64,000 bases of DNA from a virus. The stretch's first letter is position 1; the number at the start of each line of letters is the position of its first letter. Shown in pieces: positions 2 through 52,302 of the stretch. The stretch covers positions 16,058 to 80,057 of IMG/VR virus record IMGVR_UViG_3300032893_002193; one strand, given 5' to 3'. Both the position numbers and the translations under genes were made by a program. The notes under the pieces are model-generated. The model was given only the letters and a program-made list of their open reading frames with translations, was not told the DNA's origin and did no database searches.

Positions 2-310
2 CAACAGGTAACGGTCGTATTACAAACCCTTGATTCAAATGGAACTCGCGTAGATGGATATTCAACACCAATTGTTAATCGTATTATTATGCCTAATCTT
101 ACTTTATCGCCGGTATATCCTGTAGTTATGAGCAGACTTGACACCGGATTATATATTCATACATTTACATTACCGTCTGGAGCGTCATCTGTTGGTACAT
201 ATATTGTTGATATTTTTTGGACAGATGCTACCACAATGAAGACTAAAAATGAAATTTATCAGGTAATAGTAAAAGCGCCTTCTGGTCAGTTTAGCGCCTC
301 TCCTGCATAA
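2..310 (+). CDS. 5'-truncated virion structural protein (beta-sandwich, probably head/neck-associated)
   Basis: Frame is open from position 2 (QQVTVVLQTLDSNGTRVDGYSTP...) into the 89..310 ORF; the GxYxxxF...GxYxxxxxW pattern resembles the N-terminus of the next gene. Confidence 0.6.
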   Translation, partial: QQVTVVLQTLDSNGTRVDGYSTPIVNRIIMPNLTLSPVYPVVMSRLDTGLYIHTFTLPSGASSVGTYIVDIFWTDATTMKTKNEIYQVIVKAPSGQFSASPA

Positions 311-321
311 TATTTTTGTAT
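308..321 (+). promoter_or_regulatory. Variant of the putative late promoter motif (TAATATTTTTGTAT)
   Basis: Matches TAATA-N5-G(C/T)AT; 28 nt upstream of ATG 349. Confidence 0.4.
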
Positions 322-348
322 CTTATTATAGCGATATTGGAGATCTAA

Positions 349-1248
349 ATGGCCATAAAATCCAGGGGGCAGTTAATTGATGTGATGGATACAGTTCAAT
401 TAAGAATTGTTTTTAGGGATCAATTCGGCGCTCCTGCTAATTTAGATAGTTTTCCACAAATTACTATTACACAGCCATCAGGAAATATATTAACTGGGCC
501 AACAAGTGCGGGTGTATATCAGGTTTCCACTGGTACATATGGTTTTGATTATACTATCGGAATGGCTGGTCCTTATGGTGTTTGGGTAGATACTTGGGTA
601 GGATATCTCAATGGATTTAGAATGGAGGCGGCGTTTAATTTTGTCGTCTCGCATACAGATCAGCCTGCAATTAATTCTGATGGATATGTTTCAATTGGAG
701 ATGACCCCGGATTTAATTATTCTCAAACGGCAATTTTGAATTTAAATAAATTAATAAAAACACTAAAGGCCAGATTAAATAGCGGAGGAAAATCAAGAAG
801 TACTGATAAATACGGCAATGTGGATTATGTAGATTGTGATATTTATAGTGTTGAAATGTTAGCTACTTTTATAGCTGCATCATTATCGCAATTTAATGAA
901 GTCCCATATTTTACATTTTTTACTTTAGAAGACACGCAAATTATTAATCAGTTTCATAATATTTTTGTAGAAGGCGCTACACTAATGGCATTGGCTTCAC
1001 AATCATTAATAGAAAGAGGCAGAGAGTTTAACATAACTGATAACGGAATAACCTTTACTCCGCCTTCTATGAGCGAGCTCTTAAACACTCAATACGGCAC
1101 ACTATTAACTAATTATTATGATAAACTAAAATATATTAAGAACTCTATGCGCAGCAGTCCGCTTGGCCTTGGCACTCTTAAACCACTTACGGCAAATTCT
1201 CCATATATAATGAGATTGAGACATCTTAAAGAAAGACAGGTTATTTAA
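349..1248 (+). CDS. Putative head-tail adaptor/neck protein with N-terminal beta-sandwich domain
   Basis: Helical C-terminal half with adaptor-like layout (EGATLMALASQSLIE...FNITDNGITF); upstream of the tail module; GGAG RBS. Confidence 0.5.
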   Translation: MAIKSRGQLIDVMDTVQLRIVFRDQFGAPANLDSFPQITITQPSGNILTGPTSAGVYQVSTGTYGFDYTIGMAGPYGVWVDTWVGYLNGFRMEAAFNFVVSHTDQPAINSDGYVSIGDDPGFNYSQTAILNLNKLIKTLKARLNSGGKSRSTDKYGNVDYVDCDIYSVEMLATFIAASLSQFNEVPYFTFFTLEDTQIINQFHNIFVEGATLMALASQSLIERGREFNITDNGITFTPPSMSELLNTQYGTLLTNYYDKLKYIKNSMRSSPLGLGTLKPLTANSPYIMRLRHLKERQVI

Positions 1249-1250
1249 AA

Positions 1251-2174
1251 ATGAAGAAACAAGCCGGGATTATAGAACCTCCACATAAAATGCTGGATAC
1301 ATTATATCAATGGACGGCAAAGTACTTCGCCGGAATTATTTTATATAATTATCAAGAAAAATTAAAAACTGCTACAGAAAATGAAATTCCTTCTATAAGA
1401 GAGGTTATTCAAGAGGCATTAAGATTTACCAATGAAAAAATAAATACAAATTTTAATGAAGGCAAGAGGGGAACATCTCTGCGCTGGGAATTAGACGATT
1501 GGAAATATGCAGATGATAATAAGAAAAAAAGATTTAATGATTGGGTTAATGGTGGTTTGCTGAATAATTATGTTAAGGTAGTATTTATGACAAAAGACAT
1601 AAATGCTAGGGGAATTTATCAAGATGAGTTAAATGTCATTGTATTATTTTTTACTATACCGGAGTTATCGGGCGCGGCAAGTTTTCATTGGCATTTACTT
1701 CAGTGTTATAATACCGCAAAGCATGAATTAATCCATGCATCACAGTTTTTACTTTCCAGACTGCTTGGATTTGAGCCAACTGGTTCGAATATAATGGTTG
1801 GATTACCTGGGAAAAAGAACAAGGAATATGATCCATTAGGAAGACCATTCGGTGAAAATAAAGAAAGATTAAAACACGAATTGCACGATTTAGAGTTTTA
1901 TACCAACCTAACATCTTCTTTAGATGATTATAGGCAAGCGATAATTTTTGAGCCAACCACAGAATTGAAAAAAGAGTTAGCTAAAATGTGGGTTGGGGCT
2001 CCTAATAAATATTTAAAAATGAAAGAGGAAAGAAAAAAAGATCATCCAGGCGAAAGAAATCCGATTGTAATGAGAGCAATGCCTCCTTTTAAAACATTAA
2101 TATATTTAGATGATGATAAATATAAAAAAGCAGTCAAGTTGTTTATGATTGAAGTTGATAAGATGATATCCTAA
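1251..2174 (+). CDS. Zincin-like metallopeptidase domain protein
   Basis: HELIH (HExxH) with downstream Glu (HDLEFY) and preceding ARGIY strand. Confidence 0.6.
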   Translation: MKKQAGIIEPPHKMLDTLYQWTAKYFAGIILYNYQEKLKTATENEIPSIREVIQEALRFTNEKINTNFNEGKRGTSLRWELDDWKYADDNKKKRFNDWVNGGLLNNYVKVVFMTKDINARGIYQDELNVIVLFFTIPELSGAASFHWHLLQCYNTAKHELIHASQFLLSRLLGFEPTGSNIMVGLPGKKNKEYDPLGRPFGENKERLKHELHDLEFYTNLTSSLDDYRQAIIFEPTTELKKELAKMWVGAPNKYLKMKEERKKDHPGERNPIVMRAMPPFKTLIYLDDDKYKKAVKLFMIEVDKMIS

Positions 2175-2185
2175 TATTTTGGCAT
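2172..2185 (+). promoter_or_regulatory. Putative late promoter motif TAATATTTTGGCAT
   Basis: Identical 14-mer at 34887, one mismatch at 5621; 15 nt before ATG 2200. Confidence 0.6.
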
Positions 2186-2199
2186 AATTTTGAGTTATT

Positions 2200-2718
2200 A
2201 TGCATAAAAAATATACCATAGAGCAAGTGAAAAAGATTAGCCCCTCTGTCTTATTAAAACTAATACAGAAAGCTAAAGATTTTGTTAAAAAAACAGAAGC
2301 TTTTACAGAGATGTGCGAAGATTTTGATGTAAAGCCGGATATTATAGATTTGATACCGGTTAAATTTGATGATTTAGAGGTTTCTGCTAGAACAGAAAAA
2401 GGAATAATTATTTTAAATTATAAACTTTTATGTGATGGAGATTTTTTTAAAGATTATATGTATTTATGTCATGAGGCCAGACACTATTTGCAGCAATGTT
2501 ATAACGAAAAGCCTACAAGAGCTGCCACAGATGATGACTATCTTGATAATAAAGATGAGGTTGATGCATTTAAAACTCAGGTTGGATATATCGATGAAAT
2601 CTTTGGTGATGATGAGGCAGAAAAATATGTTGATCATCTAACCAAATATCACGGATTGAAGGGCAGTGAAAAAGAAGAAAAAGAAGAAGAGCTGTTGGAG
2701 AAAGTAAATGAAGATTAA
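2200..2718 (+). CDS. Small zincin-like metallopeptidase
   Basis: HEARH (HExxH) followed by YLDNKDEVDAF (third-ligand Glu, ExxA). Confidence 0.65.
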   Translation: MHKKYTIEQVKKISPSVLLKLIQKAKDFVKKTEAFTEMCEDFDVKPDIIDLIPVKFDDLEVSARTEKGIIILNYKLLCDGDFFKDYMYLCHEARHYLQQCYNEKPTRAATDDDYLDNKDEVDAFKTQVGYIDEIFGDDEAEKYVDHLTKYHGLKGSEKEEKEEELLEKVNED

Positions 2719-5623
2719 AATTGCTCAAAATACCCTTCTTGATGAGGCTCTTAATAGGCTATTAGATAGCTATCATAAACAATTATCTTTATTTCAAAAG
2801 GGATATGGGGGCAGACCGGCTCAAGAAAATATAGAACCTCCAAAAAAAGAACCGGAACCATATAAATTAGAATATCCAGAACTTTCACAAGAGCAGCTTA
2901 AAAGCAGAAAATTAACAACAGAAGAAATTGAGGAAAGTCAGAAAGAATTAGAAGAAATTAAAGATAGAAAATATTGGGAATTTGAAAGAAAAAAAGAAAT
3001 AGAAGAACAATTAGAATTAAACAAAAGATTAGGTGTAGAAGAAATTATTAAGAAAGAAATAATAAAAAAATATAATGAATTAAGAAATAAAAGCATAGAG
3101 TTTTATAAAGCCTATCAAGAAGCAAACGATCTGTGCGAAGAAGCCCCAGTAATTGACATTAATTTTGATACTGCAACATATATAGAAGTTTTTAAAACGC
3201 TTCCCGATGTAATAGAAACGGCTGCCAAAAATAATATAGGTTATTTATTTGGATTAATTAAAAGCCAAACAAGATCTGGAAGATATGGCGGAGGGTTTCC
3301 TAACGATAGATATAGGCTTGATAAATTAGTAAATTTTATTAATAAAGAAAAACTGAATATTTTTAATATTACTCCGGCTAATTTTAAAGATACGATTGAT
3401 AAGATGTCTCAAATCATATCTATAATGGATGGAATATTATTAGAATACAATAAAAGGAAAAAATTATTATTATATTTAAAAAAGAATGTAAAACAAAACA
3501 TTGATAATTTTTTGTCTGATCCAGAAACAATTAAATTTTTATCTTGGATGGATGAATATTATAAGGATGAAAAACAAGAGATATTTGAAACCTATTTAAA
3601 TAAATTTTCTTCTGGGGACACAGATGTTATTCTAAATTTAAAAACATATAAATCTATCTACGAATCCATATCTAATAAATTTAAATATTCTCTTAAAGAT
3701 CTAAGAGAAGAGAAAGAGTATGAGATAGAAAAAGTTATATTTGAAGAATTAGAATTAATAACCAATGAGTATTTAAAACATCTTCGATCAAATATACTTC
3801 CGATGTGTTCGGTTGACAATATCGATCCATTATTTAAATATTTGCAAAAAGAAAATATTATGGATTTAAAATCAATTTTTTATTTCATAAAAAATTGTGT
3901 TAATCGAGAAGTTTCTGATTTTTTAAAAGATAAGGATAATGAGAAAAAACAAGCAAGAATAAAAGAAGTAATTGATGACTTTATACTTCACTTTATTAAT
4001 GATATTTCGAAAAAAAAATTAAGTTTATATAAAAATACCCTTGTTTTATTGCTTCCTAAAAACATATCATTAATCGATCTTGCTTCAAAAATGACAAAAA
4101 AAGATATTTATGAAATGAGTAAGAAAGTAATTAGAGAATTTGTCTTAAAGTGTATACCGAGAATGGAGACTGGACATGGCTTTTCCTTGGAGGCAGATTA
4201 CACCGGATACTTACCACCAATATCTGCTATAAATAATCTTTTAAATAATACTGGAAAAATTTCTATAGAAGCTATTACCAATCATTGTTTAGAAAAAAAT
4301 CCAAGTATACCAAGAGATTTTTGCGCCGCTCTTGTTAAAAATATTATTAATAGTGGTAGAAATTTAGAAATTTTAGAAAAAATGGGCAACTATGAAGAGC
4401 CTGGTTTTAAATTTATATTAGAGTTTCTTAAAAAAAATAATAAATATGATACTAATAATTTTATTAACTTTGTCATAAATAATGGTTCTAAAGCTAATTA
4501 TTTATTATATAGTATTGTTAGAGAAATGGGATTAAGTTATGATGAGGCGGTTGAAGTGGCTGTCTCCGGCATCAGAAAAATAGAAACTTTTGATAAAGAT
4601 CAGTCAAATTTAATTGATGCCGTTCGAGAATTACACAATTCTGTTAGCGGTGTTGGAACAAAAGCAATAATTAATATATTGAAAAATAGAAATTTTAATA
4701 ATTTTAATAACACCGGAATAGTAAAAAAATTAATTATTGCATATGCTCAACTTATGAAAGAGGGGGGGATAAAAGGAATTGAACAAAAATTCGGATCGTT
4801 ATTATTAGAGTTTAAGCGAAGAGGATATATTAGCAAAGATTTTTCTAAAAATGCTAAATTAATTCAAAAATTTTTCGAATCAAATGAAGTAATTAATCCA
4901 TCAAGCACATTATTTTCAGAAATTTTTCAGGCGACAACCAAATTTGAAACAGATTTATCATTTTTACAAATGGGTGATGCTTTAATTGAATTAACCAAAG
5001 ATTATCAGGTTAAAGATAAAAATTTATTTAAATTAAATCATTCTATGTCAGATAATTTAAGATTTTCCGTATTAAAAGATAAAGATCCAAGAATTTTAAG
5101 GGTAGGAATAGAAACCAATTGTTGTCAGCGAATTGGTGGTGTTGGCGAAGCTGCAGCCAGAGACTCCTTTATGAACCCGCTTTCTAGCGTTTTAATATTA
5201 GAGTGGAAGGATAACGAGGGCAAATGGAGAATATTGACTCAAAGCTATTTTCATTATGTGCCAAAAGATAATGGATTTATTCTTGATAACATTGAATATA
5301 ATCGAGAAAATGTTCGAGAAAGCGGTGTAGATTTAGATAGGATTTATGCCGAATATGCAAATTCAATGAAAGATAAATTAAAATTATCTTATTTTTTGGC
5401 AGGAAAGGGATATTCAAAAATAAATCCTGACAATTTTAAAACATATGTAATTACCGGAGGAGATCCGAGATATTTTGATCCAAGGGCGACAAAAAATAAT
5501 GAATATACTGATTTTAACCCCAGAGGCTCCATAGATTTGCTTTCTCCTAAATTTGAAATTAAAAAGAAAGCATTTATTCAAAATTTAAGAATGGTGATTT
5601 TTGGCGCCCCGATTTTCACTTAA
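2708..5623 (+). CDS. Large Lys/Glu-rich protein with conserved-looking C-terminal enzymatic domain (possibly PcfJ/GNAT-like)
   Basis: 971-aa ORF; C-terminal GIETNCCQRIGGVG...ILTQSYF...FILDNIE; family assigned from memory only. Confidence 0.4.
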   Translation: MKIKIAQNTLLDEALNRLLDSYHKQLSLFQKGYGGRPAQENIEPPKKEPEPYKLEYPELSQEQLKSRKLTTEEIEESQKELEEIKDRKYWEFERKKEIEEQLELNKRLGVEEIIKKEIIKKYNELRNKSIEFYKAYQEANDLCEEAPVIDINFDTATYIEVFKTLPDVIETAAKNNIGYLFGLIKSQTRSGRYGGGFPNDRYRLDKLVNFINKEKLNIFNITPANFKDTIDKMSQIISIMDGILLEYNKRKKLLLYLKKNVKQNIDNFLSDPETIKFLSWMDEYYKDEKQEIFETYLNKFSSGDTDVILNLKTYKSIYESISNKFKYSLKDLREEKEYEIEKVIFEELELITNEYLKHLRSNILPMCSVDNIDPLFKYLQKENIMDLKSIFYFIKNCVNREVSDFLKDKDNEKKQARIKEVIDDFILHFINDISKKKLSLYKNTLVLLLPKNISLIDLASKMTKKDIYEMSKKVIREFVLKCIPRMETGHGFSLEADYTGYLPPISAINNLLNNTGKISIEAITNHCLEKNPSIPRDFCAALVKNIINSGRNLEILEKMGNYEEPGFKFILEFLKKNNKYDTNNFINFVINNGSKANYLLYSIVREMGLSYDEAVEVAVSGIRKIETFDKDQSNLIDAVRELHNSVSGVGTKAIINILKNRNFNNFNNTGIVKKLIIAYAQLMKEGGIKGIEQKFGSLLLEFKRRGYISKDFSKNAKLIQKFFESNEVINPSSTLFSEIFQATTKFETDLSFLQMGDALIELTKDYQVKDKNLFKLNHSMSDNLRFSVLKDKDPRILRVGIETNCCQRIGGVGEAAARDSFMNPLSSVLILEWKDNEGKWRILTQSYFHYVPKDNGFILDNIEYNRENVRESGVDLDRIYAEYANSMKDKLKLSYFLAGKGYSKINPDNFKTYVITGGDPRYFDPRATKNNEYTDFNPRGSIDLLSPKFEIKKKAFIQNLRMVIFGAPIFT

Positions 5624-5634
5624 TATTTCGGCAT
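5621..5634 (+). promoter_or_regulatory. Putative late promoter motif TAATATTTCGGCAT
   Basis: One mismatch to the copies at 2172 and 34887; 10 nt before ATG 5644. Confidence 0.6.
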
Positions 5635-5643
5635 TTTTAAGTA

Positions 5644-7254
5644 ATGCCATATTATTTAAATAATACCAACGAAGGCTTAAAAAAAACAACAAGTCTTGGG
5701 GACGGATCCTCAATTAAACTTGATTGGTATTCTGCTTATCCCAGTAATAGATCTAATAAAATTGCCTATAATATATATGTTGATACAAATCCAATTACCT
5801 TTGAAGATAATTTTTTTAATAAAACGCCAGTATTTATTTCTGTCGGAGGGGCAACAAGCGCAACTATAACCGGATTAACTCCAGGCGTTTTGTATCATTT
5901 TGGTGTAAGGGCAGTAGAATATGATCCGAGCAGCGTAGATTTTAGCAAGCTTCCTCAACAAAATGGAATATATATTTATCCATCATCATTATTGAGATCG
6001 AGTATTACCGCTACCAGTTCTATAATACCACTTGCCGATGCAGAGTTTTTTCCTAATCACGGTGTTATAAAAATAGGGGTTGAATTAATTTATTATTCTT
6101 CTGTTGATTATGTTAATAATAATTTGTTGCTAAATAATCCTACTATTCAAAGGGGATATAATGGCACAACTGCAACATTTCATACTACAGATGGATATGA
6201 TGGATACACATACTGGGACCCATCTGTAATATTTTATCCAATTGATTCTGAAGAGCAAAATACGGTTGTCTTTGAATGTCAGAATAGGTTTGATGTTGGC
6301 AATTATTCTTTTACTTTAATTGACGGATATCATCAAAAAACAAAAGATATATTAAATACTGATTTATCTGGAAGTGATGCTGGGAATGTGAATTTTCCAT
6401 CGTATGATTATAGCGGATATCATAGAACAGATCCGACGCTATTATTCTCTGGAGCTTGTGTTGGTAGCTATATCGGCGGAGAGTATTATTGTGCAGACGG
6501 ATATAGCGGCGTAGGTAGAAAGTTACGCGGACTCAATTTACAAAATATTAATGATCAAAGACAAGAGCAGTTATTATTGTTAACTGGAGAACCTTGTTGC
6601 ATTATAAGAAGAAATTTTACAGGCATAACTTGTGATTGTTATATTCCTGGACGAGAATATCCCGAAAGCAGGTGCGAAAGCTGCTTCGGCACAGGTCAGG
6701 TAGTGGGCTATATTCAGCTTTTTAATTTTGGACGACGAAGTGATTTAAGGTTTTTAATTAGATTTAGTCCGGCAGACGATCAGGTTAAAATGTTAGATAC
6801 CGGATTAGAGAGTGAATTAAATGTTTCTGCTTGGACCTTAACATATCCATCAATACATTCTCGTGATGTTATTTGTAGATTCGATGAAAATGGCAACGAT
6901 GAATTTAGATATGAAGTAATTTCTGTTAATAGAAATAAGATGATGTTTAGTCTTTCTGGCGGACAACATATGAGTTTGCAAAGAATTAGAAAAACAGATC
7001 CTATTTATCAGGTTCCAGTTTTACGAGATGGTTCTGACTTTCCACAATCTATTAATACTTCAGTTGGTTCTGCTATACCGGCAATTGCTCCACATATCCA
7101 TGAAATAGTTATTAATGAAAAATATCCACAGTTACTTCCGCAGCTCACATCTGTAAATGCCGGTCATAACCACGCAATATCTTATGATAAAAATAGCGGA
7201 ACAATAACCCTATTGCCAGAATTAGGACATTCGCATACTATTGTATATCCTTAA
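5644..7254 (+). CDS. Putative neck/head-closure protein with N-terminal FN3-like domain, Zn finger and His-rich tail
   Basis: FN3 signature (LDW...YNIY...ITGLTPGVLYHFGVRA); CDC...RCESCFGTG; C-terminal HIH/HNH/HSH. Confidence 0.55.
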   Translation: MPYYLNNTNEGLKKTTSLGDGSSIKLDWYSAYPSNRSNKIAYNIYVDTNPITFEDNFFNKTPVFISVGGATSATITGLTPGVLYHFGVRAVEYDPSSVDFSKLPQQNGIYIYPSSLLRSSITATSSIIPLADAEFFPNHGVIKIGVELIYYSSVDYVNNNLLLNNPTIQRGYNGTTATFHTTDGYDGYTYWDPSVIFYPIDSEEQNTVVFECQNRFDVGNYSFTLIDGYHQKTKDILNTDLSGSDAGNVNFPSYDYSGYHRTDPTLLFSGACVGSYIGGEYYCADGYSGVGRKLRGLNLQNINDQRQEQLLLLTGEPCCIIRRNFTGITCDCYIPGREYPESRCESCFGTGQVVGYIQLFNFGRRSDLRFLIRFSPADDQVKMLDTGLESELNVSAWTLTYPSIHSRDVICRFDENGNDEFRYEVISVNRNKMMFSLSGGQHMSLQRIRKTDPIYQVPVLRDGSDFPQSINTSVGSAIPAIAPHIHEIVINEKYPQLLPQLTSVNAGHNHAISYDKNSGTITLLPELGHSHTIVYP

Positions 7255-7263
7255 GGAGATTTT

Positions 7264-9729: not shown

Positions 9730-9757
9730 TATTCGCTCATAAATTAGCTTATCTTGA

Positions 9758-9771
9758 GCATATATTTGCAT
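9758..9771 (+). promoter_or_regulatory. Putative late promoter motif (GCATATATTTGCAT)
   Basis: ATA-N5-GCAT core; 18 nt upstream of the holin ATG. Confidence 0.4.
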
Positions 9772-9788
9772 ATCTTAAGAGGTGCAAG

Positions 9789-42400: not shown

Positions 42401-45400
42401 TCGTTGATGGCCCTACCGTTTCTTCTATTAAAAATATAGTTTCAACAATCACTCATACTCCAACAGAAATTATAGAATCAGCCTTTAATAATTGGTCTCT
42501 TGGAAATAGTATATTGGTTCCTGAACAATTTTCTACTACCGGCTCATTTGCATTAGTTCCGGCAAAATTTGGATCTGGAGTAAAAATAGATCAACCAGAT
42601 CAAACCATAAAACTTCCAGTTGCAGGAAATTTAAGAATAGAGGAAGGAACGATTGAATCGTGGGTATTTCCTGAATGGAATGGATTAGATAATTTGTCCC
42701 AACTTACCTTACAAATTAATAAAAACGGTTCTCCATTACCAGAAAATATGATTTTTCTTGGTCCCAGTGAATATCATCCAGAATACACATATAATTTCGG
42801 AACCTATTCTATTACTATTGATAAAAATAGCAATGTACAGGGTAAACCAAATAAAAATAAAAATGGTGTATTTATTTATTATGATAAGGACCAGAGCGGA
42901 CTATTTTCTCGTTGGTATTTAGAGGTTATTGATGGCTATGATGATGGATATTCGTTAAAAAACTACAATATATCTATTAAAACAAACGGTAATTTCTACG
43001 ATTCAAAGTTTTTATATACATTTAAGCCAGCAACAGGATCAATATTTACCGGAACCAATTCTCTTACCTATAACATTACAAATGATGCTAATGTTGGTCA
43101 AGGAATAACTTTTATAGCCGATAATAGACATTATTTGTTTGATTATGGAGAGGCGGCAGATAAAAACAGAATATCTATTTATAAAGATGAGAGCGGGTAT
43201 TTAAATTTCAAAGTTTATGATAAAAACTCAAACTCATCCTCTATATCGGCCGATGTTTCTTCATGGGTTTCAGGAAATCCTCACTATATCTCTGCTTCAT
43301 GGAAAATTAACAATAGCACCAACAGAGATGAGCTGCATTTGTTTATTGATGGTTTAGAAGTTCCGAATATTATTAGATATGGAAATACTGTATATCCGTA
43401 TCTGCATGAAAAATTTAGGACGGTCAATCCAGAAGAAATTGTGGGTGTAATCGGATCTAATATAGTTGCCTCTAATGATCTTGTTGTAATTGCAGGATCT
43501 AATGTAGTATCATCATCATTAAATTTTTCGGCATACGGTATTGTGAACGGAAACACCATTTACATTGAAGAGTCTGGGTTTAGTCCATCTGGATATACAA
43601 TAACAAATGTTAATGGAAATAATTTAACACTGTCTACAACGATGCCGTCCTCAGCAACTGGCGCATCCTTCTCTGTGAATAAGACAACCTTTAATGTTAG
43701 CACAGAAGTAAGTATTTATGATAATATAGCCATATCATTACTTCATTCTGCCCTCACATCTAATGACATGCAGACATTTGCTGGTTCCTATACAGTAAAT
43801 ACTACTACTACAAATTTTACCACTCATAATATTCTTCCCGGTTATTATTTGAGAATTATCGGAGGTTCATTTACCTCTGTTTATACTATTTTAAGTGTTT
43901 CATCAAATATGTTGGTGTTAAATAACCCTATGCCAACTACAGCATCTAATTTAACATTTTTTGTCTACTCAAATCAGGATCAAGAAATACCCGGACAGCG
44001 CGCTCTTTATCCAGCATATACAATAAATTCAGTTAATAATATTTCTATTAGAGATAAGGCTCTTGCTAACGATATTGTTTTAATAAAAACTCTTGGTATC
44101 AATCATAGAAGAACAAGACAGCGATATTATTTATGGGGCAATTCATCTAATATTATAAAAACACAATTGCCACCACCATCATCATTAAGTCAAGTAAATA
44201 TATATAAGGTTTTATTAACAAAGACCGCGATAGGTCCGTTAAATTCAACATTAATGGCCGGAATTTTTCAATCCAACAATATATCTACCGATCAAACAAC
44301 CAATAATATTAGCGGAAGAAGTCTCTCTGTATCTATTAATGGAACTAATATAGATTTTTCTTATCCTGTAGCAGTTTCTATTAATGGAACAATCGTTAAC
44401 CAAATTACCGGAGCGCAGTCTACCGGAACAGAAACATTGTCATTTACTGGTGTCGGAAGTCTTGGAACACTAAATACCACCAATATGTTTGCATCTGTTA
44501 ACTACATTCAGGTAAATTGCAAACCAATTAATTCAACACAAAATTGTCTTTATGTTGAAGTTAAAGAAAGATACTCCTTAACCCAATTAGAAAATAACGC
44601 AGGCTATGTATCTAATATTGGTCCAATCGTTTATCCGTTAATTAGATTTAGTTATCAGGTATCATATGGAAATACATTAGATGGATATGGTAATGGATTT
44701 ACCGTTCACGATGCTAATAATTTATTCTCTAACACATTAATTGGAAATTACTTACATATTATGAGTCCGCCACAGGTTGCTGGATATTATAATATTTCCG
44801 GAGTCTCTTCTGATTTCAAGACTTTAACTCTAACACAATTATCAGGATCGCATAGTTTACCGCTACCGTCCTTCTCTAATGGAACATATGAGGTATTAAA
44901 TATCTCTACTTCTAATAGCGGTTTACAAAATGGTTTCTTCACATTTGAAAGCAATCAATATGCCGGGATACCATATTTATTAACTCAAGGGGCATATGAT
45001 TTTGATTATTACACCTACTTATCTATACCGTTTGAAATAAATAGTCCTTATTTTTATATTGGATCTAATCTCTTTGGAAATAACCAATTTGATGGGGTCA
45101 TAGATGAATTTAAAATAACAGATTCTATGCTCACAGATACAAGAACGGGAGAAATAGTTAGCTCTTCTCAAGAAACAATTACTAAAAACTATAATTCATT
45201 AAAGCCACTAAATATAAGTAAAAATACTTTGGTTATGGCCAGATTTGATGTATATCCATTTGTTAATGATGCAGATTTCTACATAACATCTAATACCAAT
45301 TACATTCAATCTGGATATAGCGTTAATAGTAATTTTAATAAAAGCATATCCATTAAAAATAATTTCATTAGAGTGGAAAATGATGGAATTTTAAATACAA

Positions 45401-46401
45401 AAACAGAAGGAACTATAGAGTTTTGGATCAATCCCATCTATGATACTTTTAATGACCCGAATTATAGGTTTTATTTTGATGCTACTTCAATAGTTAGTGA
45501 GAATATTGTAAGCACTAATAATGTTACCGCCGTTGTTTCTGGAAAAATTGGTAAGGTAGTTAGTGTTAAGATGCAATTTGGAGACAGCTCTATTGATTAT
45601 TTTGTCGGTGGAACAGTAGATAGTGATGGACAAACAATAAGGTTAAATAGAGATCTTCCTGCACAAAATACTCCGGTTATAGTTCAATATATACCATCTG
45701 GAACAAATGGAAATAGAATATCTATCTATAAAGATCCCTATGGTTATGTTAATTTTACTATAAACGCAGATAGTATAGAATATCAGGTTAGAGCCCCAAT
45801 TTTCTGGAGTGGCGGTAGCTGGCATAGAATAAAGGCCAGCTATAAGATGAATAAGGGAGTTGGAAGTGATGAATTGCGCCTATTCGTTGACGGCTACGAA
45901 AGAGGAAATATATTGTGGGGTAACGGATTAATATTTGGTCAGGGTCTAGTTTTCGGATCTTCCTATGTAGGATCTAATCAGGTTAATGCTAATCTGAAAT
46001 TTGCCGATACTATTAATGAGTTTTATATAGGCTCTGATTTCACTGGCAATAACTGCGCATATTCCTTATTTGATAATTTGAGAATTAGCAATATATCAAG
46101 GTCTATATATAAGCCTTTCGGTGAGTCTATAGATCCTAATTACAGCTCTAATTTAAATATTGTTTTGCCGGTTACCCAAGATCTATACACTACACTTTTG
46201 CTTGATTTTGAAACCGCCATACAGAAAAATACTGATTTTTCGGTTATTAGAAACGGTCAGGTCGGCCTGTTTGATTTCCAGGTTAATGTTTATGACTCTT
46301 TTGACCTAATAGGATCTAATCAAGCACTAAAAAATGTTCTAGAAACACTGGTTAATAGTCTTAAGCCAGCTAACTCTCGCGTTTTCTTTGTATATAAATG
46401 A
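39460..46401 (+). CDS. Giant baseplate wedge protein (gp7/gpI-like) carrying two LamG/ConA-like domains
   Basis: ERYRDAI...GPTVSSIK and terminal LKPANSRVFF wedge motifs; two GTIExW...NRISIYKD...LFxDG...FYIGS...DE/NxxI LamG-type units. Confidence 0.65.
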   Translation: MSNLRIISVNVIDSTHISVKFTANLIQNLSTLNVSIASQVTGIPDSSAVEVSVSGDTLEITCLPLTPVTAYFLTLQSTSSNPFTSINGDAILLEDGVANQKLIFGPVEAENDVKTNLVNYLRDTIYNTDNGTIISSYLDAVALLFSKALYDIKQVKNENYISTLITDEQKTRSSGPFDRLNEEGAYEILRVSKYKTGTQNPFSFTYSDFPSNPVSLQQLETEDSLTANSIDGDLLFNINTFVLNLSRRFVIKVNSITFNYSNGMNPYVYNISEYGYQILDSTYDQDNAFTYLLLNDNQIKLNEKILQDSNFSTQNISSIIVDYYYKDTGRIVSSASVNVYAIMPSGREVLPALENIFNLQHAPLTDLNGNSVSLNGISFINPNSIPELNSPHPAFLYEVPFRLDYLPSRPGEYSVDYSTGTVYVFGADNTQDGTGPTPPLAVYYYKYSFVSNVDYIYDEDLCELVALPNGSLTGNPGIINFTAEPGLALDIDYRANIHQESLNERIKNNLTSLGSLLTSNSPITNVFRIYNETSGEIYTPTRWNNNKVYFSYNKPPRLIAATRERATFEVVSNEILFVNNTISTSNPSINIFKILLTNNNIISQSEDCIGSSLNTSVSFSNNSIFSQEVYYDNTQSETANLTRLGQVGYYQINYTNGIVYVAVQSTQGLNIGSVSYKKDSISPNNPHVTSVEDIYYQFSSISQKEKHFDYISFSDGSIIPRTFDVSNERFLNNNAAYQYILSYGTVGTFLDSIFVAGVSQNIKFIRGVYEITDVLNNISPINFSASSTFNGTTLNVNPLIYNEYHTIQYDGVHYYITLNTPLYFLSPNISLNISVIRSSDSASLWNNSGTISLGNPLKLILPGINSPHAGDFVDVTYTFTINNFSSVIIDYNKGDYYIDYTYLADEILVSYEYGDNVLDFRQSQALDIGDTYYVSYRVGALRDALLKNFGTLINIPLLTNFSIDFERERYRDAIQAAMHSFVDGPTVSSIKNIVSTITHTPTEIIESAFNNWSLGNSILVPEQFSTTGSFALVPAKFGSGVKIDQPDQTIKLPVAGNLRIEEGTIESWVFPEWNGLDNLSQLTLQINKNGSPLPENMIFLGPSEYHPEYTYNFGTYSITIDKNSNVQGKPNKNKNGVFIYYDKDQSGLFSRWYLEVIDGYDDGYSLKNYNISIKTNGNFYDSKFLYTFKPATGSIFTGTNSLTYNITNDANVGQGITFIADNRHYLFDYGEAADKNRISIYKDESGYLNFKVYDKNSNSSSISADVSSWVSGNPHYISASWKINNSTNRDELHLFIDGLEVPNIIRYGNTVYPYLHEKFRTVNPEEIVGVIGSNIVASNDLVVIAGSNVVSSSLNFSAYGIVNGNTIYIEESGFSPSGYTITNVNGNNLTLSTTMPSSATGASFSVNKTTFNVSTEVSIYDNIAISLLHSALTSNDMQTFAGSYTVNTTTTNFTTHNILPGYYLRIIGGSFTSVYTILSVSSNMLVLNNPMPTTASNLTFFVYSNQDQEIPGQRALYPAYTINSVNNISIRDKALANDIVLIKTLGINHRRTRQRYYLWGNSSNIIKTQLPPPSSLSQVNIYKVLLTKTAIGPLNSTLMAGIFQSNNISTDQTTNNISGRSLSVSINGTNIDFSYPVAVSINGTIVNQITGAQSTGTETLSFTGVGSLGTLNTTNMFASVNYIQVNCKPINSTQNCLYVEVKERYSLTQLENNAGYVSNIGPIVYPLIRFSYQVSYGNTLDGYGNGFTVHDANNLFSNTLIGNYLHIMSPPQVAGYYNISGVSSDFKTLTLTQLSGSHSLPLPSFSNGTYEVLNISTSNSGLQNGFFTFESNQYAGIPYLLTQGAYDFDYYTYLSIPFEINSPYFYIGSNLFGNNQFDGVIDEFKITDSMLTDTRTGEIVSSSQETITKNYNSLKPLNISKNTLVMARFDVYPFVNDADFYITSNTNYIQSGYSVNSNFNKSISIKNNFIRVENDGILNTKTEGTIEFWINPIYDTFNDPNYRFYFDATSIVSENIVSTNNVTAVVSGKIGKVVSVKMQFGDSSIDYFVGGTVDSDGQTIRLNRDLPAQNTPVIVQYIPSGTNGNRISIYKDPYGYVNFTINADSIEYQVRAPIFWSGGSWHRIKASYKMNKGVGSDELRLFVDGYERGNILWGNGLIFGQGLVFGSSYVGSNQVNANLKFADTINEFYIGSDFTGNNCAYSLFDNLRISNISRSIYKPFGESIDPNYSSNLNIVLPVTQDLYTTLLLDFETAIQKNTDFSVIRNGQVGLFDFQVNVYDSFDLIGSNQALKNVLETLVNSLKPANSRVFFVYK

Positions 46402-46437: not shown

Positions 46438-49400
46438 ATGACAAGGTTGCCAGTTTCCTCACAACAAAATAGATGGTTTAATACAGAGAATGTTGATGAT
46501 ACGGCATTAACTCTAGAGCAAAATTATAATAACCAAAAGTTTTCATCTATAATAAACAATCATTTTGGTTCGGGCGTTTTACTTGAATCCTTGGTGCCGA
46601 ATACTATCTTTGATTCATCTTTAGTATCTGGATTGCTTGATGGTAAGGGAGTAAGTGTTCAGTTTCAACCATCAGATCAAAATCTTGGAAATCAATTATC
46701 TGTCTCACTCACTAATTCATTAGCAAAAGGAAAGAGAACTGTTAAAATACTTATTGTTGGATTGGATTTTCAAAACTCGCTACAATATGACACATTAATA
46801 TTCTCTACAAATGAAGTTCAAATTACATCAAAGCATTATACCAAGGTTTTACAGTTATTTTTTAATGATTTTATAGGGGATCCGAAACAATCCTTTAATC
46901 TTGGTGGCAGAATTGTAATAACAGAAGCTCAAGCCATGACAATTTCTCGTGATTGCAAAATGGTAGCTCAGGATGTAGAACCTAATATTTTTATGAGAGA
47001 TTTTTATGTTACCGGCTCTAATACCCTATCGAATGTTCTTACAAATGCTCTGCCAAGCTATAATATCGATACATTAGATATAACTACTGGCTATAAACAG
47101 TTAAGAAGCATTATAGAAAACGATGTAACTTCACAAATAGGTCAGAAGTTTTTAGCTACCACAAATAATATTCAAAAAATTACATTATTAATGTCTGTAA
47201 CGAACGGTATAAATCCAAACGATCTTGCTTGGACCGGAGATTTAATTATTAGCATATATCCGCTTCAATCTTCTATAACTTGCCTTACTGATATAACTCC
47301 ATCGTTAGCAATAAACTTTCCACCATCAAATACTCCGGTAGCACAATTAAGCACTAACTATGCTACTCTTCTTGCTAGCGGCGTTCAATTAAATACGGTT
47401 CCACAGCCAGTTGACTTTATTTTCAGCAATACTCCGGTTGGCTCAGGATTATCTATTGTATCTGGCAATTACTATATTGTGACCGTAAAGAGGGCAGGAT
47501 CGGCTAATAAGTGCCAGATACAGCTTGCTAGCGGTAGTGATAGAGTAGCCAACTCTAATTTGGCGCTATATGATGGTAATTCATGGATTGATGTGCCCGA
47601 GGAAGATCTTTGGTTTCAGGTATGGACCGATGCTGCCAAGGTTTCTGATGGTCAGGCATATGATCAGGGAAATGGCATAATTATAGAAAAAACATATATA
47701 AGCCCATCTACAGGAGCAAATGCCGATTATTCATATAATCAGGTACAGCTCTCTAATAGCGACACTTATTATGCTGTAATGCAAGCCACTACGCTTCAAT
47801 CTGGACAGGTTCAAGATCAGAGAACCGGCAATCCAGTAAATTCCAAGCAACAGTTTGTGCCGACATTATCTTTGATTAACTCTTTTGCTCTATTATCTTT
47901 ACAAAATTCATCCAGTCCACTTATTCTTGGAACAATAGCAGATAAAAATGTAAATAATTACGATCCTTCATCTGCTACACTAATAGAATATTTGAGAGAA
48001 TATTGTATAGTAAAAAATGAAATTTTAATAAAAATTATTGACGATCCGACAGATGTAAGATATGATACGAATATCTTAAGCTTGGTTACGGAATTCTTAA
48101 ATGGCAATTTGAATGGTGCAAAATTTATACCTAATGCAGCAAATCAAAATACATTTTATAGAATATCAAAGGCCGAACTTGTTTCAATGATCTATGGCGA
48201 CATCAATGGAGATGGTGTTGTCGATGAGAATGATTTATTGGCGGCACAGCAATTCATCGGGGCAAATTTAGTTAATATACCAAGCAAATCTAATTATATC
48301 ACCCTAACTAATTATTTTGCTAACGATAACTTACTGACATATCAAATAATTAATCCGATTACCAGCACTGTTCTTGCAAGTGGAACCGATGGCGTTCTTG
48401 TAGTAAATCCACAAGATAATACACAGGCCATTTTTACAAGCTCTTCTGCATCGTTTACATCGATTGCTAATATCGGATCAATGAATATAGTTATTAGCAA
48501 CTCATTAAGTAATCCACAAAATGATGGTACTTTCATTATAAATGGATTGGTTGATGCTCATAACATATCAATTAAAAAGCTATATTATAGTCCTGATTCT
48601 TTAATGCAGATATATCGTGCTGATATTACGGGAGATATGATTATAGATAGTACCGATATAAATTATATTAGCAACTATGTATATAAAGCCAATCCATTTC
48701 CCGCGGTATCTGGACCTGGAACAAAAGTTGGTAAAAACTTCAATGTATTAAGAATATCATTAGAGCAATTTGTAGATAGAAAAGATAATTATACAACCAA
48801 CTATCTTACTCGTGGTTCTAATATACATGTTTTGCCAGATGTATTGGTTGATGGATATAATGCCGGATACAGTGTATATGGACAAAACTTATTATCCAAT
48901 CCATTACAATTTAACATTGTAAAACAGTTGCATTGGTATGAATCTGAAGTTGCTGTTTCGGCAAATCAAAAATTTGTTCCAGCGTCCTTTAATTATCAAA
49001 CAGGATATAATTTAAATAACTGCTCGCTTAATGGAATTACAAAAGAAGAATATCCTCCATCGTTGTCATTTGACCCAGGAAGAAATGACATATTTATCCC
49101 AAATAACCTTGTTGTTAATTATGGTGGAGAGCTAATTAGACCGGACGGATATTATCACAAGATTGATATGGAAGTCGGAAATGTTGTTCTTGAGCTTCCA
49201 CAATTATCAATAGTTGCCGAAAAGACCGTTAATATTTTTACAGATTTTATCGCCGATTATAGTGGAACCGGATATACAAGATTAGGTTATCCTGCTATGA
49301 AATTTGCTGACTGTTCTACTGTTGGCATGAATGCTTTGTTAAATAATCAGGTAATATTTAGCGTCTCTATGCAATCATCTTCGCCACAATTAGATGGTTA

Positions 49401-49674
49401 TGCCTGCAGTAATATTAGCGGAGTAATAGTTGATAATAGAATGGGAATCTATGTAGAGCAGACAACCGGAATATTGCACTTTAATTTCGCGAACTTATAT
49501 GATGACATTGTATTGCAGACATTAAGTTCAAAAATACAAATAACAGCCTATCTTAAGAAAGCAGGATGGAATAATAATCCAATATTTGTCTCATCTCAAA
49601 AAATGGCAAATATTCTACAATTAACGAGTAATACTATAGTATGCGGATTTGATACATTAGTCTTGCTATCTTGA
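46438..49674 (+). CDS. Baseplate/tail fibre-attachment protein with dockerin-like Ca-binding repeats
   Basis: N-terminal WF...VDDTALTLEQNY motif; GDINGDGVVDEND and ADITGDMIIDSTD loops. Confidence 0.55.
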   Translation: MTRLPVSSQQNRWFNTENVDDTALTLEQNYNNQKFSSIINNHFGSGVLLESLVPNTIFDSSLVSGLLDGKGVSVQFQPSDQNLGNQLSVSLTNSLAKGKRTVKILIVGLDFQNSLQYDTLIFSTNEVQITSKHYTKVLQLFFNDFIGDPKQSFNLGGRIVITEAQAMTISRDCKMVAQDVEPNIFMRDFYVTGSNTLSNVLTNALPSYNIDTLDITTGYKQLRSIIENDVTSQIGQKFLATTNNIQKITLLMSVTNGINPNDLAWTGDLIISIYPLQSSITCLTDITPSLAINFPPSNTPVAQLSTNYATLLASGVQLNTVPQPVDFIFSNTPVGSGLSIVSGNYYIVTVKRAGSANKCQIQLASGSDRVANSNLALYDGNSWIDVPEEDLWFQVWTDAAKVSDGQAYDQGNGIIIEKTYISPSTGANADYSYNQVQLSNSDTYYAVMQATTLQSGQVQDQRTGNPVNSKQQFVPTLSLINSFALLSLQNSSSPLILGTIADKNVNNYDPSSATLIEYLREYCIVKNEILIKIIDDPTDVRYDTNILSLVTEFLNGNLNGAKFIPNAANQNTFYRISKAELVSMIYGDINGDGVVDENDLLAAQQFIGANLVNIPSKSNYITLTNYFANDNLLTYQIINPITSTVLASGTDGVLVVNPQDNTQAIFTSSSASFTSIANIGSMNIVISNSLSNPQNDGTFIINGLVDAHNISIKKLYYSPDSLMQIYRADITGDMIIDSTDINYISNYVYKANPFPAVSGPGTKVGKNFNVLRISLEQFVDRKDNYTTNYLTRGSNIHVLPDVLVDGYNAGYSVYGQNLLSNPLQFNIVKQLHWYESEVAVSANQKFVPASFNYQTGYNLNNCSLNGITKEEYPPSLSFDPGRNDIFIPNNLVVNYGGELIRPDGYYHKIDMEVGNVVLELPQLSIVAEKTVNIFTDFIADYSGTGYTRLGYPAMKFADCSTVGMNALLNNQVIFSVSMQSSSPQLDGYACSNISGVIVDNRMGIYVEQTTGILHFNFANLYDDIVLQTLSSKIQITAYLKKAGWNNNPIFVSSQKMANILQLTSNTIVCGFDTLVLLS

Positions 49675-49683
49675 GGTTAATAT

Positions 49684-52302
49684 ATGGCAAGAAATGCTGC
49701 AAATCCAGGCGATTTAGTAAAGTTCACAGCCAAGGTATATTCCAGTCAAACCGGAATAATACCTTCAGGATTAATTGTCTTTAAAAATAACAATATTACC
49801 ATAGGCGTTGAGTCGCTGGATAATCAAGGAACGGCATCAATTCAGTTAATTTTACCACCAGGAGATAATCTGGTTACCGCAACCTATCTTGGTAGCGATA
49901 TATTTAATCCGGCAACATCATCTTCTGTCATTCAGGTTGTCTTATCTCCGACCATTCTTAATAATATTTTGGTTAGTCTTACAAGCTCGTCTAATATAGT
50001 ATCATATGGAAATAAAGTTTCAATTAAGGCAACTCTAACTACCACCGGATCAATGACAATTCCGAGTGGCAACATTCAATTTTATTCTGATGGAAATTTA
50101 TTATATACTCTACCAGTTCTATCAAATACAGTTTCTACTCCGCCTACTTTGCTTCAGGGCGGAAGTCATTTGTTAAAAGCAATATATCTTGGTGATAATA
50201 TTTATGGAAACTCTGTATCTAGCCCGATATCCCAATTGGTCACCCCGTTAAATACAACCACAACGCTTGCCTCTTCTGAAAATCCGGCATATACCTGGGA
50301 CAATATAAACATAACTGCTACAGTATCTGCCTCCTATGGCTTTCCTAACGGTAATGTTAATTTTTATGATAATGGTGCATTGGTAGCAGTTGTCGCTCTT
50401 AATAATGGTCGGGCAGTATTTACAACCAGTTATCCTTCTATAGGTAATCATTCAATATACGCTCAATATGTAGGAAATAGTAATTATAATACATCAACAT
50501 CTGCCGCCTATAATCAAAGCGTACTTCAGTCTTCAAATGCAAATACCACAACATCTCTGACATCATCATTAAATCCATCATCATTAGGCGCTCCGGTACA
50601 ATTAACCGCTACAGTGATCGCTGGTTTTGGCATTCCAGACGGTTTGGTAAATTTTTATGATGGTTATAATTTAGTTTCAACTAATGCTCTATCGTCCGGT
50701 TCAGCACAAATAACAATATTCCCTAGTGCAGGAGTTCATGTATTAAGTGCTCAATATCTTGGAAGCTCTTTATATAATGGTAGTGTTTCCGCAAATCTTT
50801 ATCAAACAGTAAATGCTGGCAACACCTCTGTAAATCTTTCATTAGTTGGAGGAACAAATCCATCTACCTATGGAAATGAATTAATTTTTTCTGCCGTAGT
50901 TTCGAGTCCATCAGGCACATCACCAACCGGCAATATATATTTATATGATGGATATACCAGCTTAATAGACACCAAACCTGTAGTTGGAAATAGTGCTATA
51001 TTTAATGAATCGTCTTTAATTTCTGGAACCCACTATCTAACCGCAGTATATTCTGGAGATGCTAATTTATCATCTTCTACCTCAAATGTCTTATCGGAAA
51101 CTATTACTAACAGAAATACTAATACGGCTATAGTATCTTCTACCGGATGGAATCACATTCATTCAGGCAATCCCATTTTATTTACAGCAACGGTATCTTC
51201 TACCTATGGAATTCCAACTGGAAATGTCGCGTTCTTTGATGGATATAGTCAAATAGGAACAACTCAAACAATAGGTGCATTAGGGCAAGCAAGCATCACA
51301 ACATCTTCATTATCTGTAGGAAATCACACCATATATGCCGTTTATTATGGTGATAGCAACTATAATACCTCCACCTCGTTATCACATACTCAATTGATAG
51401 ATGGTTATACTGTAGGAATAAATCTAACATCTAGCATTAATCCAACTGTTACCGATCAACAAACAACATTTACTGCAACTTTAACCGGATATTCAATTGC
51501 TCCGACAGGCACAATTTCTTTTTATAATAATGGAGTTTTGATTAGCACACAAAGTGTTTCTGGAGGAGGGGCATCTGTAGCAACCGGATTTGTTGCCGGT
51601 TCATATACGATAACTGCGGTTTATTCGGGAGATACAAATTATTCTCCAGTTACTTCTGGCAATCTAACACAAACAGTTAATAAAGAAACTGTTAGTATTT
51701 CTTTAGGAGAAAGTCCAAGTCCAGGATGCGATTCTCAAAATGTTGCATATACAGTAAGCGTGGCGTCTTCATTAGTAACCGCAACTACAGTGCCAACCGG
51801 AACCGTTACTCTTACAGCAACTCCGGTTCTTGGTGGATCGGCTATAACTCTAGGAAGCGGATCCCTAAGTTCAGGCAGCATAGTAATTAATAGTAATTCA
51901 CTTACGGTTGGTTCTTATAATACATCGGTTTCTTATTCTGGAGATAGTAATTTTACATCCGGAAGCTATTCTGGATCGTTCACCGTCAACTCTCCTGCAG
52001 CCACTACTACCGTAGTTTCCGCAAGTCCAAGCTCTATAGCGTTAGGAGGAAATACAACACTCAATGCTACCGTTTCATATGCTCTTGGTGGCGCTGTAAC
52101 GACCGGTTCTGTTTCATTTTATTATGGAAGTCCAACCAATCTATTAGGAACAGTAAATCTAACGATAGGTGGCGGCGGTCTTGCATCTCTAAGTATTACC
52201 GGATGGAGTCACGGCACCGGAAGCATCTTAATTACTGCGATATATAACCCAAGTGGCTGTATCGCTACTTCAAGCGGAACCACTCATTTGGTTGTTGGAT
52301 AA
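49684..52302 (+). CDS. Ig-like (Big_3-type) repeat protein, 9 domains; probable virion adhesin/decoration
   Basis: Nine ~90-aa repeats of TTTxLxSSxNP...TATV...PxGxVxFYDG...GxHxIxAxYxGDxNY. Confidence 0.85.
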   Translation: MARNAANPGDLVKFTAKVYSSQTGIIPSGLIVFKNNNITIGVESLDNQGTASIQLILPPGDNLVTATYLGSDIFNPATSSSVIQVVLSPTILNNILVSLTSSSNIVSYGNKVSIKATLTTTGSMTIPSGNIQFYSDGNLLYTLPVLSNTVSTPPTLLQGGSHLLKAIYLGDNIYGNSVSSPISQLVTPLNTTTTLASSENPAYTWDNINITATVSASYGFPNGNVNFYDNGALVAVVALNNGRAVFTTSYPSIGNHSIYAQYVGNSNYNTSTSAAYNQSVLQSSNANTTTSLTSSLNPSSLGAPVQLTATVIAGFGIPDGLVNFYDGYNLVSTNALSSGSAQITIFPSAGVHVLSAQYLGSSLYNGSVSANLYQTVNAGNTSVNLSLVGGTNPSTYGNELIFSAVVSSPSGTSPTGNIYLYDGYTSLIDTKPVVGNSAIFNESSLISGTHYLTAVYSGDANLSSSTSNVLSETITNRNTNTAIVSSTGWNHIHSGNPILFTATVSSTYGIPTGNVAFFDGYSQIGTTQTIGALGQASITTSSLSVGNHTIYAVYYGDSNYNTSTSLSHTQLIDGYTVGINLTSSINPTVTDQQTTFTATLTGYSIAPTGTISFYNNGVLISTQSVSGGGASVATGFVAGSYTITAVYSGDTNYSPVTSGNLTQTVNKETVSISLGESPSPGCDSQNVAYTVSVASSLVTATTVPTGTVTLTATPVLGGSAITLGSGSLSSGSIVINSNSLTVGSYNTSVSYSGDSNFTSGSYSGSFTVNSPAATTTVVSASPSSIALGGNTTLNATVSYALGGAVTTGSVSFYYGSPTNLLGTVNLTIGGGGLASLSITGWSHGTGSILITAIYNPSGCIATSSGTTHLVVG

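Follow-up and report, generated by a model that had tools for sequence, protein, structure and literature searches.

An Asp-Gly-Tyr tripeptide enriched on the outer tail proteins of a giant myovirus clade, and a neighbouring glycosyltransferase block as its candidate reader

To study a recurrent tripeptide in phage virion proteins, we took a 64,000-nucleotide stretch (here called the window) of an 80-kb virus contig (IMG/VR record IMGVR_UViG_3300032893_002193, positions 16,058-80,057; genome label G000), in which the sequence Asp-Gly-Tyr (DGY) is found again and again in the tail genes. An earlier interpretation, made from the letters only (the sequence-only reading), had counted 26 copies and suggested that they are sites for a virion modification system encoded by the phage. 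Translation of the co-oriented open reading frames (ORFs) reproduced this count exactly: the 26 copies lie in frame in ten virion ORFs between positions 53 and 51408, and a single further copy, the 27th, is found after 52.3 kb, at 63682 in a DNA methylase, as had also been claimed.

All ten ORFs are on the plus strand. A small virion ORF truncated at its 5' end (2-310), with a syntenic homologue beside the neck genes of a complete 446-kb relative (G003), and a neck-region protein of 299 residues (349-1248) carry one DGY each, at 53 and 679, the latter being kept as DGY in G003. The orthologues in this relative are about 50% identical to the proteins of the window, and it was used as a same-genome control. 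Next come a 536-residue fn3-containing protein (5644-7254) with four copies (6190, 6199, 6322 and 6496, including a DGYDGY doublet), a fibre-like protein of 1495 residues (10233-14720) with two (12075 and 12087, in the form DGYGDGY), and the 933-residue tail sheath (16632-19433), also with two, of which that at 17076 is variable and that at 17895 (residue 422) is kept by 59 of 67 orthologues. Further copies are found in a baseplate-region protein of 695 residues (31125-33212; at 32451 and 32973), a baseplate J-like wedge protein of 1366 residues (35360-39460; at 37082, 38042 and 38189), a distal baseplate/fibre protein of 2313 residues (39460-46401; at 42931, 42943, 44680 and 45889, including DGYDDGY), a fibre protein of 1078 residues (46438-49674; at 48850, 49144 and 49393) and an 872-residue protein with nine Big_3_5 Ig-like repeats (49684-52302; at 50659, 50947, 51238 and 51400), which has no homologue in G003. 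The sites in the window are dispersed rather than C-terminal. The inner-tail block (19515-31073, plus strand), which comprises the tube, chaperone-like ORFs, proteins of 659 and 280 residues, a 1662-residue tape measure and a 673-residue hub-like protein, contains no DGY, and the sequence-only reading was thus right in finding none in tube, chaperone, tape measure and hub.

The sheath was identified by Pfam and PHROG matches to its C-terminal domain, and its AlphaFold model (pLDDT 81) resembles the sheaths of phi812, phiCD508, T4 (gp18) and pyocin. Nucleotide and protein searches of cultured phages did not reveal a close relative of the window; its sheath matched cultured phages only in C-terminal domains, in an Eggerthella phage and in Bacillus phage G.

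The excess of DGY in the window was evaluated over 26 structural ORFs, 17,166 amino acids in total, against per-protein composition, a per-protein first-order Markov model, and shuffles preserving either DG or GY (5000 each). Composition predicts 3.1 copies (P = 6e-16 for the 26 observed), which agrees with the handful roughly estimated before, and the Markov model predicts 7.2 (P = 5e-8); under both nulls DGY ranks first among 4916 tripeptides. The control for DG frequency that the sequence-only reading had called for gave the same picture: shuffles keeping DG or GY had a mean of about 7 copies and a maximum of 18-19, and none of the 5000 reached 26 in either case. Tyr follows 27% of all DG, and Asp precedes 33% of all xGY, in these ORFs, and DGY wholly accounts for the slight surplus of DG and of GY that the structural proteins show. 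The earlier claim that selection acts on the peptide also held, since 27 of 31 matches to GAYGGNTAY are in frame on the coding strand and the choice of codons follows overall codon usage; the share of GATGGATAT among the DGY codings (12/27) equals the product of the codon frequencies. A DNA-level motif or codon artefact is ruled out by these in-frame matches and ordinary codon usage.

Some copies are paralogous, which could inflate the count. As had been pointed out from the sequence, the copies at 50659, 50947 and 51238 occupy the F-x-D-G strand-turn position of the Big_3_5 domain (PF16640), with the fourth copy of that protein (51400) falling between repeats. However, this likeness covers only 3 of the 26 copies, the remaining repeats of the same protein have no DGY at this position, and the excess persists when the whole protein is left out (22 versus 6.9 in the shuffle control), so paralogous Ig repeats were rejected as its cause. 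Counts pooled over orthologues, such as those given below, are in addition non-independent, but the shuffles controlled for DG were made within a single genome, the excess holds from a GC content of 28% to 56%, and 135 distinct alignment column states bear DGY. Chance, composition, a DNA-level motif and repeat paralogy are therefore excluded as explanations of the excess.

Next we examined 91 loci from uncultured phages, recovered with the sheath and baseplate J proteins (GC content 28-48%), many of which sit on contigs of 200-480 kb. DGY occurs 660 times in these loci versus 76 expected, and 596 times versus 67 (8.9x) after removal of identical proteins; all loci longer than 15 kb show the excess, and DGY is the top tripeptide across the clade. 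The ratio of observed to expected counts falls off sharply when any of the three positions is altered or the order reversed, being 4.1x for DGH, 2.0x for DGF, 1.6x for DSY, 1.3x for EGY, 1.1x for YGD, 0.9x for NGY, 0.45x for DAY and 0.2x for DGW. In these respects DGY has the form of a sequon, being a short ordered motif, specific at each position and with a possible acceptor residue. The flanks of 245 non-redundant DGY sites hold no more than 0.2 bit of information per position, indicating that the unit is the bare tripeptide and not a piece of a shared domain, and a hidden shared domain around the sites is ruled out on the same ground.

The sequence-only reading had placed the copies in neck, fibre, sheath, baseplate and Ig proteins, and this was borne out by the outer protein families, which with orthologues pooled are enriched by 8-24x. 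The highest ratio is that of the fn3-containing protein (24x), followed by the 695-residue baseplate-region protein (18x), a 263-residue family at 15724-16515 (15.6x), the sheath (14x), the fibre-like protein at 10233 (13.5x, 45 orthologues), the fibre protein at 46438 (12.7x), the distal baseplate/fibre protein (11x) and the baseplate J-like protein (7.8x). The 15724 family has about one DGY per protein across 58 orthologues; the copy in the window has DGC where the G003 orthologue has DGY, which suggests that the tag was lost recently.

The inner families behave differently. In the tube, chaperone-like, 21223, 23212, tape-measure and hub families, DGY occurs twice versus 21 times expected in the pooled orthologues (P ~1e-7), with DG at normal frequency, and the tube family has no DGY in 66 orthologues. 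Since orthologues are non-independent, we also counted distinct states, each defined by an alignment column and the residue that follows DG. Tyr makes up 135 of 554 such DG[x] states in the outer proteins versus 24 expected (P = 1e-55). The enrichment in outer proteins is thus very robust, and the avoidance in inner proteins is suggestive. A similar division is seen within the sheath: besides residue 422 there are about 28 other columns with sporadic DGY, and all 29 map to residues 59-611 of the confident sheath model, in beta-rich extra domains, with none in the core (residues 615-933), which we take from published sheath structures to be the inner layer of the sheath. In G003, 26 of 33 DGY lie in the tail module (140-240 kb), where 4.9 are expected. 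Other myoviruses show little of this. The tail, baseplate and fibre proteins of T4 have 5 copies versus 2.1 expected (2.3x), the tail of phage G has 1 versus 1.4 (0.7x), and outgroup myovirus loci have about 0.6x.

With regard to the turnover of the sites, orthologues of the window and G003 have 9 DGY sites in common, while 14 are found only in the window and 11 only in G003. The non-common sites often align to DGx or xGY (DGQ, DGN, NGV, TGY or AGY), indicating that sites come and go mostly where a Gly is already present, at a density that is maintained. It is also evident that DGY columns tend to lie near indels (79%, compared to 49% of all columns). Where DG is kept and Tyr is lost, the replacement is mostly R, T, S, V, I or N. 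Among the distinct DG[x] states of the outer proteins, Y is 11 times commoner than F (135 versus 12) and W does not occur, and F as the alternative at DGY Tyr columns is under-represented (29 versus 50 expected, P = 5e-4).

These data bear on the explanation that DGY is an intrinsic structural motif, in which a Gly turn and an exposed Tyr stabilise beta-rich outer domains and have spread by domain shuffling with no reader involved. It would account for the retention of Gly where D or Y is lost, for the alignment of non-common sites to DGx or xGY, for the position of sites at strand ends and loops in the sheath model, for the three copies at the Big_3_5 F-x-DG position and for the mild 2.3x in T4; moreover, Tyr is better tolerated on surfaces than Phe, which could by itself favour Y over F. 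However, NGY is an equally good turn and is not enriched, there is no flanking or domain signature, the excess spans unrelated folds (sheath inserts, fn3 protein, baseplate J, Ig repeats and fibres), and inner beta-rich proteins have normal DG and almost no DGY. Nor would physics be specific to one clade, and the tails of phage G and of outgroup myoviruses show no excess. A generic Asx-Gly beta-turn motif is rejected by the flat counts of NGY, phage G and the outgroups, and the structural explanation as a whole appears unlikely to us.

We consider it probable instead that DGY is a tag read in trans by a factor specific to this clade. The motif is position-specific and context-free, prefers an aromatic residue with a hydroxyl group, lies in outer, indel-rich regions of unrelated folds and turns over at kept density, and its excess is missing from the rest of the same genome and from other myoviruses. 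The tag-like behaviour on outer tail proteins that had been proposed from the sequence is thus what the alignments display, as judged by the lack of a flanking consensus, the nearness to indels and the turnover of sites.

The same statistics would fit a non-covalent docking or recognition motif, that is, exposed turns bound by a clade-specific protein (a decoration protein, an assembly chaperone or a tail-coating fibre) or by a ligand on the host surface. Asp and Tyr are a typical pair for contacts with sugars or proteins, and close doublets (DGYDGY, DGYGDGY and DGYDDGY) number 52 versus about 10 in random placement (about 5x), as would suit a multivalent binder; but one orthologous DGYGDGY site supplies 19 of the 52 and inflates the count. 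A tripeptide by itself, its flanks carrying no information, is also a small epitope for specific protein binding, and the searches identified no candidate binder, the conserved neighbours being enzymes. We hold docking to be rather improbable.

The conserved neighbours follow the tail module directly, and all five are on the plus strand. A GT-B glycosyltransferase (GT) of the GT4 family (52340-53464), the candidate reader, starts 37 nucleotides past the last tail gene, with no predicted terminator in the gap. It is followed by a GT2 glycosyltransferase (53461-54168), a membrane-anchored protein of 328 residues with no family match (54245-55231), a weak GT2-like protein (55235-56065) and an SDR enzyme resembling dTDP-glucose 4,6-dehydratase (RmlB-like; 56068-57036), whose score of 342 bits to TIGR01181 is just below the cut-off. 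When all G000 proteins were compared with G003 by tblastn, the tail module was found to be syntenic and to be followed by GT4 (42% identity), the 54245 protein (52%), which lies between GT4 and the dehydratase there too, and the dehydratase (59%). No homologue was found in G003, by the same search, of either GT2 protein, of the Ig protein or of a collagen/GT/methyltransferase cassette upstream of the window. The two GT2 proteins, which are accessory, and the upstream cassette were therefore ruled out as required writers, since G003 is itself rich in DGY. Of the GT4, GT2 and RmlB-like genes that the sequence-only reading had named as candidates, GT4 and the dehydratase are conserved across the clade and remain in the proposal, and the GT2 genes have dropped out of it.

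The model of GT4 is a confident GT-B fold (pLDDT 93), and a PDB sequence search with it returned generic GT4 enzymes. In six records (G002, G004, G007, G009, G015 and G016) the GT4 match is interrupted by a single in-frame stop codon, which is TAA in G015 and TGA in five records, or falls into two parts, an N-terminal piece of 60 residues and the rest; this could be alignment overrun, a split gene or recoding. The 54245-55231 protein has an N-terminal membrane helix, a linker rich in Pro, Thr and Asn, and a beta-rich C-terminus ending in Phe. Directly past the sugar genes lies an ORF of 161 residues (57049-57534) with 13.7% tyrosine, no Pfam or NCBIfam match and no homologue in G003. A TubZ/PhuZ-like tubulin (57584-58978; Pfam Tubulin and TubZ-like_C, 57% identity in G003), a typical feature of giant phages, comes next, and a GH25 lysozyme and a helicase are encoded downstream of it. 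Upstream of the window, positions 1-13262 of G000 hold a collagen-like fibre gene and the GT/methyltransferase cassette, of which only a dehydratase gene (11476-12438) matches G003, at the locus of the 56068 orthologue; the cassette is accessory cargo outside the core of the clade.

The tail genes themselves include some further features. A tailspike of the pectate-lyase type is encoded at 7264-9729, and a dockerin type I calcium-binding loop was detected at residues 586-610 of the fibre protein at 46438-49674 (27.6 bits, over the cut-off). The sequence TAATATTNNNGCAT occurs three times on the plus strand (2172-2185, 5621-5634 and 34887-34900) just upstream of ORF starts, versus 0.29 expected, which supports it as a candidate late-promoter motif.

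The distribution of the GT block was then compared with that of DGY. Among 18 further related records the dehydratase is present in all and GT4 in 17, the exception being a record of 52% completeness, the contig of which stops at the baseplate genes. More distant sheaths were collected by a profile search of 1.84 billion representatives and arranged in a tree of 99 sheaths. DGY is abundant both in the clade of the window and in another one with very large sheaths (1079-1474 residues), whereas a neighbouring trio (604-1364 residues) and an outgroup of 38 sheaths are almost free of DGY, and the loci recovered by the distant-sheath profiles are bimodal in this respect. By a profile search, the distant DGY-rich lineages were found to have a GT4 orthologue in the corresponding position, about 40 kb beyond the sheath, and in all lineages examined the tail module is followed by several GT genes in a block. 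Two distant records, G021 and G024, have 32 DGY versus 3.4 expected and 33 versus 3.9, respectively, in the tail module. Their tail-adjacent GT4 (L220:5905-8166 in G021) is a tandem double GT4 of about 750 residues with a match to the 'GT4-conflict' family, and it adjoins a 1129-residue protein containing a GT2.

The GT4 profile had no match in four outgroup records, all of them without DGY excess, and the two DGY-rich records in which GT4 was missing are fragments that end before its expected position. Relatives lacking the glycosyltransferases but equally rich in DGY, which the sequence-only reading had named as evidence against a glycosylation link, were thus not found for GT4: all sufficiently complete DGY-rich records have it. 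A search for a DGY-free sister lineage keeping the tail module returned only a lineage at about 3x that has GT4, plus distant outgroups with neither DGY excess nor GT4. Co-occurrence of DGY and GT4, which the sequence-only reading had proposed as a check, is seen in the DGY-rich clade and missing in the outgroups, but the comparison is one of a single clade against outgroups.

Taken together, we propose that in a large clade of uncultured giant myoviruses DGY could be a short, solvent-exposed and positively selected tag, carried by those proteins of tail, neck, baseplate and fibres that face outward. Its reader would be the GT block past the tail genes, led in the window by GT4, with the dehydratase-like enzyme supplying the sugar. 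The reaction would take place in the cytoplasm, either ahead of tail assembly or in the course of it, and would join a glycan containing a 6-deoxyhexose to the hydroxyl group of Tyr in exposed D-G-Y turns; the outcome would be a sugar-coated tail exterior, with tube, tape measure and hub free of sites. Tyr O-glycosylation of exposed D-G-Y is in our view the best single mechanism, with a probability of roughly 0.4, because no enzymes other than the GT4/dehydratase block were found that both share the distribution of the motif and are physically linked to the tail genes. The fuller statement, that the clade coats the outside of its contractile tail in this manner by soluble cytoplasmic phage enzymes of the GT-B type and keeps the inner parts free of the sequon, is put forward more tentatively.

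A number of observations weigh against glycosylation by the GT block. Foldseek with the GT4 model retrieved generic GT4 enzymes acting on small molecules, lipids or glycans (GlgM, PglA, a chlorovirus GT, BshA and PimA), with no pointer to a protein acceptor. A sister lineage (G028, G029, G032 and G033) has GT4 and yet the weakest excess, only 2.7-3.8x in the tail module, although DGY is still its top tripeptide (51 versus 16 pooled), and the two largest distal fibre proteins account for most of the copies; the same lineage has the largest GT block, including in G029 (L210:10574-18728) six genes of the GT1 family and a GT-methyltransferase fusion. In evolutionary terms, the joint presence of GT4 and DGY counts as effectively one event. 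The block could moreover act on something else, for instance fibres, DNA or the host envelope. As for the confinement of the motif, only 2 of 232 DG[x] states in inner proteins are Tyr versus 7.4 expected (P = 0.02), a modest avoidance once redundancy is removed, and G003 has 7 DGY outside the tail module versus 11.6, with no clear avoidance in non-virion proteins. Its head and packaging region (terminase, portal and protease protein; 225-258 kb) has two DGY and no enrichment, indicating that the tag is specific to the tail rather than virion-wide. Finally, known Tyr O-glycosylation to our knowledge uses membrane oligosaccharyltransferases and not soluble GT-B enzymes. The link to glycosylation is therefore circumstantial: the co-distribution is effectively one event, the GT-richest lineage has the weakest excess, the known systems use membrane enzymes, and the attachment of anything, Tyr as acceptor and GT4 as writer are things that we infer.

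The preference for Y over F and W would also be consistent with another covalent change that depends on the hydroxyl group, namely sulfation, phosphorylation, nucleotidylation or oxidative cross-linking of Tyr; Asp-Gly is in addition the classic pair prone to form succinimide, so that isoaspartate chemistry might be considered, and methyltransferases are annotated upstream of the window. However, a search of five complete relatives for phage-encoded enzymes gave no match over the cut-off for PF13469 (Sulfotransfer_3), PF00685 (Sulfotransfer_1) or PF00069 (Pkinase), and a phage-encoded sulfotransferase or kinase was accordingly rejected as reader, although enzymes of the host could still act in this way. 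No candidate oxidase came to light either, none having been looked for. The upstream methyltransferase cassette is absent from the DGY-rich G003, and NGY, which forms succinimide faster, is not enriched. Neither isoaspartate chemistry nor a metal site, both named as alternatives from the sequence, has gained support, and we judge another covalent chemistry at DGY to be very unlikely.

If DGY is indeed read, it would be a simple peptide code that separates the outside from the inside of a phage tail, shared by hundreds of genomes of giant phages from many environments and undescribed in the literature searched, where a 'DGY motif' was not mentioned and nothing relevant was found on a glycosylated tail-sheath tyrosine. 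Should glycosylation prove true, tyrosine glycosylation would gain its first defined sequon, and phage virions their first sequon-directed system for the modification of several proteins. A reader of DGY would also mean a new post-translational chemistry in phages, in the form, possibly, of glycans that cytoplasmic enzymes link to Tyr, it would allow outward-facing domains of uncharacterised virion proteins to be predicted from sequence alone, and a three-residue tag with a compact writer would be at hand for protein engineering.

Sequons of three residues are known from other systems, namely N-X-S/T and the D-(S/T)-(A/I/L/V/M/T) motif of general O-glycosylation in Bacteroidota. DGY resembles these in being a short, ordered, context-free motif with a putative acceptor residue and an Asp determinant, which is gained and lost at kept density in loops that are probably exposed. 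In contrast to these, the acceptor would be Tyr and not Asn, Ser or Thr, and while the N-X-S/T and Bacteroidota systems act outside the cytoplasm through oligosaccharyltransferases, phage tails are assembled in the cytoplasm.

Tyr O-glycosylation occurs in bacterial S-layer proteins, with beta-Glc-Tyr and beta-Gal-Tyr linkages and adaptors containing rhamnose (PMC2943079). The likeness to the present proposal lies in a surface array protein glycosylated at the Tyr hydroxyl and in 6-deoxyhexose chemistry with an RmlB-type enzyme. S-layer sites number two to four per protein, in variable surroundings and with no known sequon, and transfer is co-secretional, by a membrane O-oligosaccharyltransferase (PMC2943079).

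The closest parallel among phages is found in mycobacteriophages, whose virions are glycosylated by phage-encoded GTs (Freeman et al. 2023, Cell Host Microbe, as cited in PMC12619734). For another lineage of large aquatic phages, the citing paper of 2025 describes GT genes as part of the core and mentions the glycosylation of virions among the known roles of phage GTs (PMC12619734). As far as that account goes, the mycobacteriophage system shares with the one proposed here GT genes beside the structural genes, GT4 in our case lying 37 nucleotides past the last tail gene, and a glycan coat on exposed proteins, here proposed to be made in the cytoplasm. The mycobacteriophage glycans have been shown experimentally and sit, according to the same account, at the C-termini of capsid and tail-tube subunits, whereas the pattern described here, known from sequence alone, is one of dispersed D-G-Y in outer tail proteins, with a tube free of sites and a head that is not enriched.

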